64,000 bases of DNA, taken from positions 31,504-95,503 of IMG/VR virus record IMGVR_UViG_2885131123_000003; one strand, 5' to 3'. Below are positions 32,111-46,632 of the stretch, one piece after another. Made by a program: the position numbers and the translations under genes. Every line of letters starts with the position of its first letter. The first letter of the stretch is position 1. The DNA comes from a virus. Lineage: Duplodnaviria > Caudoviricetes. The notes beneath the pieces are model-generated. The model made no database searches. It saw only the letters and a program-made list of their open reading frames with translations, and was not told the DNA's origin.

Positions 32111-34360
32111 GTGTATCCAGTATCGAATGCCTTTATGCAGGCAATCAAAAGTAACACAAGAAAATATTACTGGACCGGCACGATCACCACCAGTGATAAG
32201 AAAACCTATGAATTTGAAAATGAGGATATCGTAAAAGGCAGCGGATATATTTCGAGGCAGTGCTGCGGAAACTCTGAAATTGAGCTTGGCTCAGTGTATG
32301 CCGCAGAGCTTGGCATCAGCCTGTTCTGTGATATCGACCGATACACCCTGGACGGCGCAGAAATCAAGCTCTGGTTCCATCTGCTGCTTGACGATGGCAG
32401 TACAGAGAGCATTCCGATGGGTGTGTTCTATGTGGCCGAAGCCAATCGCCGTATCAAAACACTGGAGCTGAAAGCCTATGATGGAATGCTGAACCTGGAT
32501 AAATCTTTCAACAAGGGCCTTTCCAGTGCAGCTCCCTATGAATTTCTTTCTCTGTTATCGAAGGCCTGTCATGTGGAGCTTGCGCAGACAAAGGAAGAAA
32601 TCGAGGCTTTGCCAAATGGCACGGAGCTGCTTGGTATCTATCAGGATAATGACATCGAATCGTGGCGTGATTTTCTCTATTACCTTGCCCAGACGCTTAG
32701 CTGCTTTGCAATCATTGATCGTTATGGAAAGCTCTGTCTGACCTCTTACGGGAGCACGCCAGTCATGGCCATTGATATTCGTCATCGGTTCAGCAGCAGC
32801 TTTTCCGATTTTGTTACTCGCTACACAGCGGTCAGCTCCACCAACAAAAAGACGGAAACGGCAGAATACTATGCGAAGGATCCGGATGATGGGCTGACTA
32901 TGAATCTTGGTGTAAATCCGCTTCTGCAGTTTGGCTTGGAAGAAACCAGAAAGCGGATTATAAATGCCATACTGGATGTGGTTTCTTCGGTAGAGTATGT
33001 ACCCTTTGATTCAGAAACCATCGGCAATCCTGCACTGGACCTAGGAGATGTGCTCCGCTTTACCGGCGGCCATGCAGATGAAACCAAACAGTCTGCAATC
33101 ACTTCTATCTACACAAAAATCAATGGAAAGCAAACTGTGAAATGCGTCGGCAAAAATCCAAGGCTTGCTGCAGCAAAAAGTAAGAACGACAAAAACATCA
33201 GTGGCCTGATCAGCTCCATTGGTGAAACAAAGCTCAGCATCTACACCTTCACCAATGCCTTGGCACTGGATGCCGGAGAAGAAAAGCTGTCCATCATCAA
33301 CATGGAGTTTGCATCTGGTGACGAGACTAATGCTGAATTTCATGCCCAGGCGATCATGGAAGTGGAAAGCAATCCTGATACGAGAACACTTACTGCAGAA
33401 ACGACCATTGACCTTGGAACAACCACAGATGACGAGGGGAACGAAGTTGAAAACAAGAAAGTGATTTCCTTTCCACTCTCCTGGAACGAGGACGGGAAAA
33501 CTGCACTCTCCGTTTTCTATGTGCTGGATGGTCATGAGGTTGAGGAATTCCACCCGAAGGAATCGTGGCTCAGCGGCAAGCATATCCTGACGCTCTATTA
33601 CCCGATCATCGGCCTTACGGCAAATCAGCTCCATACCTTCGAGGTGCTGATCTCCATGAAAAATGGAACCGGGCATATCGAGGCACAAAATATCATGGCG
33701 ACCATCGCCGGCCAGGGACTTGGTGTGCAGGAGCGCTGGGACGGCCGGATCACGGCAGACGATACCCTGAAGAAGATTCTTCTTTCCGCTATGCCAACGC
33801 ATACGCTGCGTGACGCTGTTACGGTACATTTCCTTGCTCCGAAAAAGACAGGATTAAATGACCACGTGACATCTATCTCCTTAACCGGAATGCCGATGCG
33901 GTCCGTGAAGGATTCGCTTCGACTCTTTGCACCGATTGTACATGATGTGGTAGAAACCGCGGATAAAAAGAAGATGCATTACCAGAAAGAATATGTCCTT
34001 GATGATGAGGTATTCAAGCTGCGTAAGGACTACGTCCTCTCTGGAAATAGCAATGTTCGCCTTGATCGTGGTCGGATGCTGAAGCTTGTGATTCCGACTG
34101 GAAACTTTGATAGTCTGACTGACCTTGCAATTCTACCTTTTGATACGCTTCCCTTTATCAATATGAAGATTTTGTTTGCTGCTGACCTCCCGCTGAATAG
34201 CTTTACTGAGCTTACCGATGGTGCCGTAAAGCTGAAGAAATCTTTCAGCACACGTATTTCTGGTCAGGACCAGGAGATCGACCGGGGACGGCTTGCCGCA
34301 TTTTCACTTGGGCTTCAGAACATGACCGAAATAACAGAACTGGAGGTAAGCAATGTTTGA
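32111..34360 (+). CDS. Tail/baseplate hub protein
   Basis: Synteny; GNPALDLGDV motif. Confidence 0.7.
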   Translation: MYPVSNAFMQAIKSNTRKYYWTGTITTSDKKTYEFENEDIVKGSGYISRQCCGNSEIELGSVYAAELGISLFCDIDRYTLDGAEIKLWFHLLLDDGSTESIPMGVFYVAEANRRIKTLELKAYDGMLNLDKSFNKGLSSAAPYEFLSLLSKACHVELAQTKEEIEALPNGTELLGIYQDNDIESWRDFLYYLAQTLSCFAIIDRYGKLCLTSYGSTPVMAIDIRHRFSSSFSDFVTRYTAVSSTNKKTETAEYYAKDPDDGLTMNLGVNPLLQFGLEETRKRIINAILDVVSSVEYVPFDSETIGNPALDLGDVLRFTGGHADETKQSAITSIYTKINGKQTVKCVGKNPRLAAAKSKNDKNISGLISSIGETKLSIYTFTNALALDAGEEKLSIINMEFASGDETNAEFHAQAIMEVESNPDTRTLTAETTIDLGTTTDDEGNEVENKKVISFPLSWNEDGKTALSVFYVLDGHEVEEFHPKESWLSGKHILTLYYPIIGLTANQLHTFEVLISMKNGTGHIEAQNIMATIAGQGLGVQERWDGRITADDTLKKILLSAMPTHTLRDAVTVHFLAPKKTGLNDHVTSISLTGMPMRSVKDSLRLFAPIVHDVVETADKKKMHYQKEYVLDDEVFKLRKDYVLSGNSNVRLDRGRMLKLVIPTGNFDSLTDLAILPFDTLPFINMKILFAADLPLNSFTELTDGAVKLKKSFSTRISGQDQEIDRGRLAAFSLGLQNMTEITELEVSNV

Positions 34361-34516
34361 TTATGGAACTATCGAGGATCTTTTAAAGAGCACAGAGCAC
34401 ATGGAGATCCTTCGAAATAATTCTCTGCAGGATGATGGCACCGATACCGTGAAAGGCGTTGACTGGTTTCAGTACAAAGGAAAAATAGCCTCTACCCTTT
34501 ATGTCAGTGGCAACTC
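34353..34516 (+). pseudogene. 5' part of an interrupted tail gene
   Basis: GGAGG RBS; reads ...LYVSGNS, then element DNA; joins in frame to 45687. Confidence 0.85.
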
Positions 34517-34768
34517 TTTGCCACAAAGTCAAGTGGTGAATTCCCAAAAGGCAAGCGGCATAAAAGAAATCCATCTTTTATATCGCTTGCCTTCTTGTTT
34601 TGTTTTGATATTATTTACGGTATTACCTTTAATTTGGGACAAAAAAAAGCAGGAAACCTTTTCAGATTTCCCGCTTAGTAAAACTGTGAAGTTCTTTTAA
34701 TTTAGAACGCTTGTCATACATCCTTAAATAATTCTATCTTTTATGAAATTCAATTATTCTGGACTACC

Positions 34769-45201: not shown

Positions 45202-45585
45202 TCAGACGAAAATCATCTCAGACCGAATGACTTCCTCTGCCCGGTGGCGTATGCTGTTCATGTGACCGACCCATGCAAGCTGGTCTTTTGCTTTCAATTC
45301 CTCCGTGACTCCCTCTGTTTCTTTTATCTGGGCAATGATACAATCCAGACGGTTCTGTGCCTGCTCATCCAGATCGGCAAGATATGTCCACAGCTTTCCA
45401 GACAGAAGCAATTCATTGTACCGGTCGGGACAATACTCTTGCAGATATTCCCTGTGCATCCGTCCCCACCGTCCGATTGGGCGGCTTTCCTCCGGCAGCT
45501 GTAAGTCTGGAATATAGTAGTCTCCGACCAGAACATAGTCCAGACCGTTACTGTCATCATGGATATGCTTTTTCAATTTCTCCAT
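45202..45585 (-). CDS. tnpV: TnpV family protein
   Basis: [26 protein letters not shown]. Confidence 0.85.
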
Positions 45586-45686
45586 AGCGACCTCCTGTTT
45601 TCGTTTTATCCGAATCCAGTTGATCGTGTCCCTGTTCATCTGTTATTCAAGGCAACTGAACTCGTCACCATGAATTATGGCACATC

Positions 45687-46632
45687 CTGGATTGGCTTTG
45701 GTGAGAATACCGAGCAGCTGAAAATCGTCCGCAGGGATACCGATCTTATGACACTTCGAAGAGAGGAAGGCACGATCTGGGGAACCTACAAGTTCCTTCG
45801 TATCCGCTGGGAAGGCTACTCTGTGCACGGCAATCGAAACGAAGCAACTCAGATGGTATGGGATGCAATTCTATTCGATACCGGAGAAATCTGCGTCTCC
45901 TTTGACGCGATTCCAACCAATAGTAGTTACCTGGCAGATTCCAGTCTGGTTGCCGGGAATGGCACGATTTCCTTTACAGCCCTTACTGGAAAGATCATCT
46001 CTTTTAAACCAAAGGACGAATCCGGGAATGGCTTTGAATATGTGGATCATGCGCCTGTTTTTCTTGATCCATATAACCGAAGATATCTCATCTCAGATGC
46101 AGATAGCACTCTGTATACCGTGGAAGAGAATGCGCTTGTGAAACTTAAGGAAATAGAACTTACAGCAGCGCTTTTTGAAGCACGTGGTGTACAGGATATC
46201 CCGGATGGAAAGCTTCTCATCACGCTGCATGATCCGACCATCCTTTATTGGCATGATTCCGAGAATCTATTCCCAGACATGAAGGTAAGCTACACAGGAG
46301 TGCCAATTCCACAGGTGCTTTATTCCGAAAGCATCGATATGTCAGATTCCACAATTCTTGGCATTGAAAAGGTAACTGCTGACTGCTCGGACGAGGTGCT
46401 GTTTGCTGTCTCATTTGATGACGGAGCAAGCTGGTGGAGCTGCATCAATGCAGTGTGGGCAAAGCTGTCCGAGGAGAAATCCGGAATGTCGAAGGCTGCT
46501 CTCGAAGCCATCAGTGTGGATTCCTGGGCGGAGAAAGCAACTACCGGACAGCTAAAATATCGATTTATCGTCAGCGGCGCAGACGGATATCTAAAGTCCA
46601 TCACAACCGACTATCTGAATACGGAGGAATAA
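45687..46632 (+). pseudogene. 3' part of the interrupted tail gene
   Basis: [11 protein letters not shown]... in frame with 34353-34516; restored product 369 aa. Confidence 0.85.

Follow-up and report, generated by a model that had tools for sequence, protein, structure and literature searches.

A Tn4451/Tn6104-type mobilisable element within a tail-module gene of a gut prophage: a probable off-target insertion that disarms the phage

Background

Mobilisable transposons with TnpX-like recombinases and 2-bp repeats have been described as insertions in the conjugation genes of Tn6103 (PMC3158075), serine-recombinase elements occur in traG of Tn5252-type integrative and conjugative elements (ICEs) (PMC5704250, Table 1, section 3.5), and Tn4451 is listed as using 'numerous sites (GA)' (PMC5704250). 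The present analysis deals with an element of this kind in a stretch of viral DNA (Duplodnaviria; Caudoviricetes) of 64,000 nucleotides, corresponding to positions 31,504 to 95,503 of the IMG/VR record IMGVR_UViG_2885131123_000003 and hereafter referred to as the window. Whereas the elements described in Tn6103 and in Tn5252-type ICEs lie in conjugation genes, the target here is the tail-module gene of a prophage.

A second group of described systems consists of genes that are split by a mobile element and restored exactly on its excision, such as sigK (skin element) and spsM (SPbeta) of Bacillus subtilis and comK, which harbours a prophage in Listeria ('active lysogeny'). An earlier note on this DNA, made from the sequence alone, had offered two interpretations of the locus, namely a reversible, skin-like off-switch on tail assembly and a parasite that disarms the prophage. 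The evidence presented below favours the latter. A Tn4451/Tn6104-type element has, with good probability, hit the tail-module gene off-target and disarmed the phage, and nothing points to an evolved switch.

Junctions of the insert and the rejoined gene

The features that define the insertion are the following (all positions refer to the window).

34353..34516, plus strand: 5' fragment of the split tail-module gene (54 codons and TC), with 94.5% identity to the beginning of the gene that is intact, at 369 aa, in Ruminococcus phage NatCom_38182, and aligning with the N-termini of homologues
34515..34516, no strand: left TC (GA) crossover dinucleotide; both junctions here have TC, as do all other insertions of the element and its relatives
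34517..45686, minus strand: integrative mobilisable element of 11,170 bp with genes mostly on the minus strand; its removal restores the open reading frame (ORF), its backbone (37491-45688) is ~82% identical to elements of other genera, and the same element occurs at other sites
34517..34539, plus strand: left terminal inverted repeat TTTGCCACAAAGTCAAGTGGTGA, conserved in relatives and holding the minus-strand -35 (TTGACT) of the predicted circle-junction promoter
45665..45684, plus strand: right terminal inverted repeat TCACCATGAATTATGGCACA, holding the minus-strand -10 (CATAAT) of the same predicted promoter
45685..45686, no strand: right TC (GA) crossover dinucleotide
45687..46632, plus strand: 3' fragment of the split tail-module gene (315 codons, the stop counted), with 173 homologues, mostly of 369 aa, and 91% identical to the NatCom_38182 gene

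The insert was reported earlier to split a tail gene such that removal of 34517-45686 leaves a continuous ORF of 369 aa, and this is borne out: 34353-34516 and 45687-46632 join into 1110 nt, equal to 369 codons and a stop. The left junction reads ...GGCAACTC/TTTGCCACAAAG... and the right junction ...TATGGCACATC/CTGGATT..., the slash marking the boundary. TC stands at either end, and its presence at both 34515-34516 and 45685-45686 makes the boundary ambiguous by 2 bp (34515-45684 or 34517-45686), as is expected for a 2-bp serine-recombinase crossover. Joined in silico, the empty site reads ...GGCAACTCCTGGATT... and the ends of the excised circle ...GGCACATCTTTGCCAC....

A search with the 314-aa C-terminal part of the split gene identified the 173 homologues, and about 100 of the 120 that are listed have a length of 366-369 aa. 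The earlier note had looked to homologues for a reading through GNSWIG, the sequence created by rejoining; all 12 that were aligned run without a gap through LYVSGNS/WIGFGEN, at identities down to 36%, with the SGNSW motif at residue 51-52. The geometry of the precise excision claimed for the element is shown in silico, the restored ORF being colinear with its homologues and free of any scar.

The ends of the insert are also well delimited. The imperfect inverted repeats noted previously were recovered by aligning 34517-34539 with the reverse complement of 45665-45684, in which 17 of 23 columns match by our count, and terminal inverted repeats are conserved in related elements. On the left, seven other insertion contexts of the same element cease to match at 34511-34515, the handful of bases that precede 34517 belonging to the target and being common to those sites; on the right, identity to related elements stops at 45686-45688. 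Joining of the ends would form a predicted promoter, TTGACT-17-CATAAT, on the minus strand and facing tnpV, the -35 of which is conserved in relatives. In Tn4451 a promoter is assembled across the circle junction, and the predicted promoter would fit the circular-intermediate biology of TnpX/TndX-type elements.

The assignment to the TnpX/TndX group with crossover at GA, put forward from the sequence at the outset, agrees with the domains of the recombinase (Resolvase, Recombinase, Zn-ribbon and DUF4368), with the presence of TnpV and with the TC cores. The insert is a TnpX/TndX-type serine-recombinase integrative mobilisable element of the Tn4451/Tn6104 kind.

Target sites of the element elsewhere

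Relatives of the backbone (~82% nucleotide identity over 37491-45688) were found in three other genera with the same ends and the same TC core, and each of the three splits a T4SS-DNA_transf/TraG-D_C coupling-protein gene at ...KLGK/ELMTQDE.... The same element carrying the same cargo, 99-99.9% identical, is present with seven different left flanks, every one of which ends in TC; four of these flanks are coupling-protein-like (TraG/VirD4) and two are unrelated, so that the element occupies six or more sites elsewhere, where it retains the full mobility kit. In conjugative elements the gene for the TraG/VirD4 coupling protein holds the motif that the element normally targets, but many TC sites are used.

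The attachment site in the phage (attB) and that in the coupling-protein genes have CAACTCCT in common; their likeness is limited to the central CAAC-TC-CT and a TGGCA half-site resembling the element's own ends. Since the likeness is confined to this core and half-site, and since many TC sites are used, the phage site looks like a pseudo-target, entered off-target by a promiscuous and recently active element.

Occupancy of the site in gut assemblies

A chimeric ORF of 115 aa spans the left attachment junction (attL), and human-gut assemblies of several studies contain it in 522 blocks. Across phage and element, sibling contigs match the window at 99.8-100% identity. The site is occupied in 24 of the 24 longest contigs with the exact Dit-like protein and in all 25 contigs with the exact downstream 469-aa protein, two of which simply stop within the element's terminus; these 49 long contigs include no sibling of the occupied lineage with an empty site. 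Empty sites with an identical 40-nt target number 30 (4 IMG/VR contigs, 11 metagenome contigs and 15 species-representative genomes), all in related phages or prophages that are just 87-96% identical to the window. A search of IMG/VR for the exact junction of the excised circle gave no match.

As all 49 long sibling contigs are occupied and empty sites are confined to the lineages at 87-96% identity, a one-time insertion in one lineage, inherited as a unit, best describes the distribution. Judged from these contigs, a single gut lineage, itself widespread, passes on the phage::element composite as a fixed unit.

A different arrangement was observed in five metagenome or IMG/VR contigs (L037, L041, L042, L048 and L051), where the DNA-polymerase region (4236-8478) is joined to a point ~100 nt upstream of the target site and the sequence then jumps from 46840 to 51183. 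These are prophage remnants without the whole head-tail module and the lysis genes.

State of the recombinase and signs of decay

A 1-nt deletion at 38767, absent from the earlier note, splits the recombinase gene of the element at ...NILND/MYSRDISKK.... In the window the sequence is AACGAT-TGTAC, against AACGATATGTAC in relatives and siblings, seven relatives having AACGA(T/C)ATGTA(C/T). The deletion is the sole difference private to the window in 20 kb compared with five sibling contigs, all of which encode an intact recombinase of ~550 aa. The site is not a homopolymer, and for this reason we lean, as a matter of judgement, towards a real mutation.

The genome carries some 20 genes for large serine recombinases, and a search of it for a second copy of the element end found none. 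Rescue in trans by a paralogue was considered and is unlikely, the closest paralogue being 42% identical to the element's recombinase and the element end being unique in the genome. The two frames might conceivably be reconnected by -1 ribosomal slippage at CCAAAAAGG, which lies downstream of the deletion; the conserved MYSRDISKK would then be lost to other residues, and such slippage was not taken as a rescue. Given the frameshift and the distance of the nearest paralogue, the element is probably locked in its site in this genome.

Independent lesions are seen in two siblings. In L084 (ERZ919391; L084:1-1940, window 38928 onward) the recombinase is interrupted at the KDLSRLGR motif by foreign DNA with a gene for a large serine recombinase of 535 aa and an ORF of 131 aa that has a Resolvase domain, likely a third layer of nesting. 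In L053 (ERZ651912; L053:10700-11410, window 52400-52600) the third recombinase of the prophage carries a CAG to TAG change and a deletion, and homology stops at window 52596, followed by an NMN-transporter gene; this is a decayed or rearranged right end of the prophage.

The genome additionally holds at least three more distantly related elements, with 67-73% nucleotide identity in the primase, VapE and TnpV segments. The locations listed for recombinase genes and related elements are C1:192-206 kb, C2:337-347 kb, C2:799-820 kb, C24:154-161 kb and window 55638-57326, and one of the recombinases sits just past the right end of the prophage.

Origin of the insertion and its probable effect

The genes downstream of the insertion that are of interest here form a single row.

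46632..49470, plus strand: downstream late genes, likely subject to polarity, namely the 469-aa tail protein, holin (48120-48533) and endolysin (48505-49470)

Under the favoured reading, the element entered by a 2-bp (TC/GA) serine-recombinase crossover, the geometry of which is shown, at a pseudo-target in the tail-module gene. The insertion truncates the tail-module protein after residue 54. A hairpin with a U-tract (34545..34606, plus strand), terminator-like along the direction of phage late transcription and followed by UUCUUGUUUUGUUUUG, lies 30-90 nt inside the left end; the RNA fold of 34538-34612 has a free energy of -25.8 kcal/mol (z = -6.1), and 0 of 200 shuffles folds as well. This hairpin probably stops the late transcript before the 469-aa tail gene, the holin and the endolysin. 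A structural protein, and probably lysis too, would in that case be missing from the prophage, which would be disarmed as a consequence. Excision mediated by the recombinase would restore the gene exactly, the geometry being evident in silico and the excision itself being expected from the behaviour of the family.

Several points weigh against this account. The polarity is deduced from a single hairpin, and the 369-aa protein, presumably needed for tail assembly, has weak fold matches, some support coming only from matches in BFVD. Assemblies collapse minority states, and rare excision would not show in contigs. The frameshift could be an assembly error, and the recombinase is intact (550 aa) in all siblings where it is called whole, except L084, so that the lineage could still excise the element.

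The main competing explanation is that the element shelters in the prophage as a hitch-hiker and excises on induction, phage production being conditional on excision, an idea also put forward for traG elements (PMC5704250, section 3.5). It draws on the scarless excision that would take place, on the intact recombinase in most sibling contigs, on the XRE-type regulator next to tnpV and the TTGACT-17-CATAAT promoter that circularisation would build facing that gene, and on the otherwise open structural, lysis and integrase genes of the prophage. Efficient excision followed by infection should, however, yield empty-site phages of the same 99.9% lineage, and the 49 long contigs contain none; nor was the circle junction found in IMG/VR. 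The site is empty in all related phages examined, so that the association is not conserved, the recombinase is broken in this genome and in one sibling (L084), and another sibling (L053) has a decayed prophage integrase. This explanation is considered unlikely, although it may hold for siblings with an intact recombinase. More doubtful still is its stronger form, a working partnership in which induction triggers excision of the element, the tail gene is restored, the late operon is rejoined to its tail-fibre and lysis genes and phage release is gated by a conjugatively mobilisable element; if true, conjugation and phage would be linked across classes by a regulatory switch widely present in the human gut. 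The skin-like switch of the earlier note is not supported, since occupancy is limited to one lineage with 30 relatives empty, the insert has many targets and lives freely as a transposon, the 49 contigs include no sibling with a restored gene and the recombinase is decaying. From that interpretation the TnpX/TndX-like unit, the GA crossover, the gene-restoring geometry and the size of 11.2 kb are retained and the switch is not; its alternative, a parasite disarming the prophage, is the better fit, in the form of a probable off-target insertion by a specialist of coupling-protein genes.

The composite might also have been selected by the host as a lock, with the insertion and then the frameshift favoured by turning a lytic threat into a harmless prophage kept for immunity, and with the recombinase breaks being adaptive. 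The wide spread of the composite (522 blocks), two independent disruptions of the recombinase in ~50 copies, the status of the frameshift as the only private change in 20 kb and the terminator-like polarity on the lysis genes would all agree with such selection. Two events in ~50 related copies cannot, however, tell selection from drift, the spread may merely track a successful host lineage and the frameshift may be an assembly error; we consider this possibility slightly less probable than the conditional hitch-hiker. An assembly artefact, in which a chimeric contig places the element in the tail gene although it lies elsewhere in the cell, is prompted by the multi-copy nature of the element in gut communities (6835 blocks) and by some metagenome contigs that break 50-120 nt inside the element ends. 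Both junctions are, however, spanned with identical sequence in many independent assemblies of different studies and show the exact TC-core geometry of the family, which makes an artefact highly improbable.

The favoured reading, off-target insertion into the tail-module gene, would provide a clean natural case of a mobile element knocking out one of another class, a conjugation hitch-hiker inside a phage, and would indicate that a specialist of coupling-protein genes also strikes phage structural genes by means of a short pseudo-site. The presence of the same junction in hundreds of human-gut assemblies raises the interest of the locus. With intact and broken recombinase alleles and empty-site relatives at hand, it is a tractable system for asking whether such insertions merely kill prophages or gate their release. 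It is also a warning for prophage prediction, as an insertion nested in a gut prophage can disarm it although it seems complete.

Gene content of the element

The genes identified within the insert are listed below.

34769..36862, minus strand: cargo, 697-aa multi-pass membrane protein with a zinc-ribbon-like segment; the exact protein occurs in 6835 blocks
36927..37307, minus strand: cargo, 126-aa protein; no family match in Pfam, NCBIfam, PHROG and PADLOC scans
37533..38768, minus strand: 3' part of the large serine recombinase (Recombinase, Zn ribbon and DUF4368; Pfam), not in the same frame as the 5' part; identity to annotated TndX is 29%
38723..39184, minus strand: 5' part of the large serine recombinase (Resolvase catalytic domain, Pfam PF00239), with a frameshifted tail
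39690..41096, minus strand: VapE-like (D5/primase-helicase type) P-loop protein (PF05272, E = 2.7e-66)
41008..41694, minus strand: CHC2 zinc-finger primase-like protein (PF01807, E = 3e-16)
41710..43278, minus strand: putative MobV-type relaxase (maximal ORF; 414 aa as called in sibling contigs)
44258..45151, plus strand: XRE/Cro-type helix-turn-helix regulator with a long C-terminal extension (PF01381; weak CapH-like and RstR-like matches)
45202..45639, minus strand: TnpV (PF14198, E = 2.5e-43)

Two small ORFs are also present. The 697-aa cargo protein belongs to no Pfam, NCBIfam, PHROG or PADLOC family, and its Atlas neighbours are unnamed clusters or 'zinc-ribbon domain-containing protein'. 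The candidate relaxase has a weak Mob_Pre match (E = 0.009, 16 bits, under the cut-off of 25.5 bits), and its translation contains HLDEGTPHIH, which we take to fit the HxDExxPHxH motif of MobV-type relaxases; no oriT was identified.

A search of the plasmids of PLSDB gave no near-identical DNA, and among the phage records searched for such DNA there was one partial match of 75% only. With regard to features of phage satellites, such as the phage-inducible chromosomal islands (PICIs), a primase/VapE module is present, and the Pfam and PHROG scans revealed no terminase-small, capsid or cos/pac-type gene. The relaxase-like gene together with the traG targets points to conjugative mobilisation.

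Variation between siblings clusters inside the element (42353-44353), with 169 of the 266 variable columns and a block that diverges in the sibling contigs L029 (92% identical) and L055 (98% identical). The cargo and the phage genes on either side hardly vary, a pattern that suggests recombination with related elements.

The host prophage and the 369-aa protein

The gene order around the insert is tape measure (28619-31732), a DUF6711 Dit-like protein, a 749-aa tail protein, the split gene, the 469-aa protein, holin, endolysin and a three-gene serine-recombinase module. Ruminococcus phage NatCom_38182 (PV036450.1, Ca. Heliusvirales) has a colinear order, its orthologue being uninterrupted, 369 aa long and in the same position. 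The window has open genes for terminase, portal, protease, capsid and tail. The element that harbours the insert is a Heliusvirales-like siphovirus prophage, and the interrupted gene is a conserved 369-aa gene of its tail module. The addition of about 11 kb to a genome of about 40 kb had been pointed out earlier, and the values obtained here are 11.2 kb and roughly 40 kb, the latter being a rough figure for the prophage without the insert.

The role of the 369-aa protein in the tail module is suggested by its position only. Its AlphaFold2 model has a pLDDT of 90; a Foldseek search of the model against the PDB reached a TM of only ~0.15, with no confident fold family. The similarities from VIA-align are weak (Z 5-6.6) and concern beta-sandwiches and jelly-rolls of a generic sort, XepA/YomS and some tail proteins among them, and the BFVD matches (E = 1e-16) are to N-terminal parts of large gut siphovirus proteins.

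Irregular versions of this gene were observed in other records. In Clostridium sp. AM22-11AC (NZ_QUCM01000038.1) the homologue matches residues 165-314 only (91%), with unrelated sequence before them, and is another disruption of the same tail-module gene at a different position. Three database proteins (P0100, P0055 and P0002) have the C-terminal part behind a foreign N-terminus, which is a C5 methyltransferase, DUF2800 or the last part of the tail protein encoded upstream; they suggest further rearrangements or read-through fusions at this gene.

Elsewhere in the prophage, the integration module (49978-53518) consists of two full large serine recombinases around a 148-aa Recombinase-domain fragment, a layout identical to that of NatCom_38182. 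Three tandem Choline_bind_2-type genes (26054-28570) lie between the tail chaperone region and the tape measure, and these repeats are arranged differently in the sibling contig L035.

Comparison with described systems

The locus resembles skin, SPbeta and the comK prophage in that a gene is split by a mobile element and would be restored exactly on recombinase-mediated excision. Those elements are fixed at one orthologous site across strains, with excision wired to a programme of the host, whereas here the site is empty in 30 related phages and prophages and the insert is a promiscuous transposon with its own mobility genes.

Tn4451/Tn4453 (TnpX) and Tn5397 (TndX) are closer in kind, sharing with the present element the DUF4368 C-terminus, the GA crossover, the use of many targets, imperfect inverted repeats at the ends, tnpV and a Mob/Pre-type relaxase, putative in the present case (PMC5704250). 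The identity to TndX is only 29% over the C-terminal 411 aa. The present element differs from all of these in its gene order, in an added primase/VapE replication module, in having no resistance gene and in its predicted junction promoter, which faces tnpV and not the recombinase.

The closest counterparts are Tn6104, Tn6105 and Tn6106 of Clostridioides difficile and the traG elements of Tn5252-type ICEs, which likewise have a TnpX-related recombinase, TnpV, 2-bp direct repeats, a gene for mobilisation (putative in the present element) and, in certain members, a protein with a VapE domain, and which reside inside an essential transfer gene of another mobile element that is regenerated on excision (PMC3158075; PMC5704250). 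The present element and its relatives are themselves found in TraG/VirD4 genes. What sets this locus apart from the Tn6104-type and traG elements is that the host is a prophage and the gene belongs to its tail module, that the cargo is different (the 697-aa membrane protein) and that the recombinase is frameshifted in this genome.

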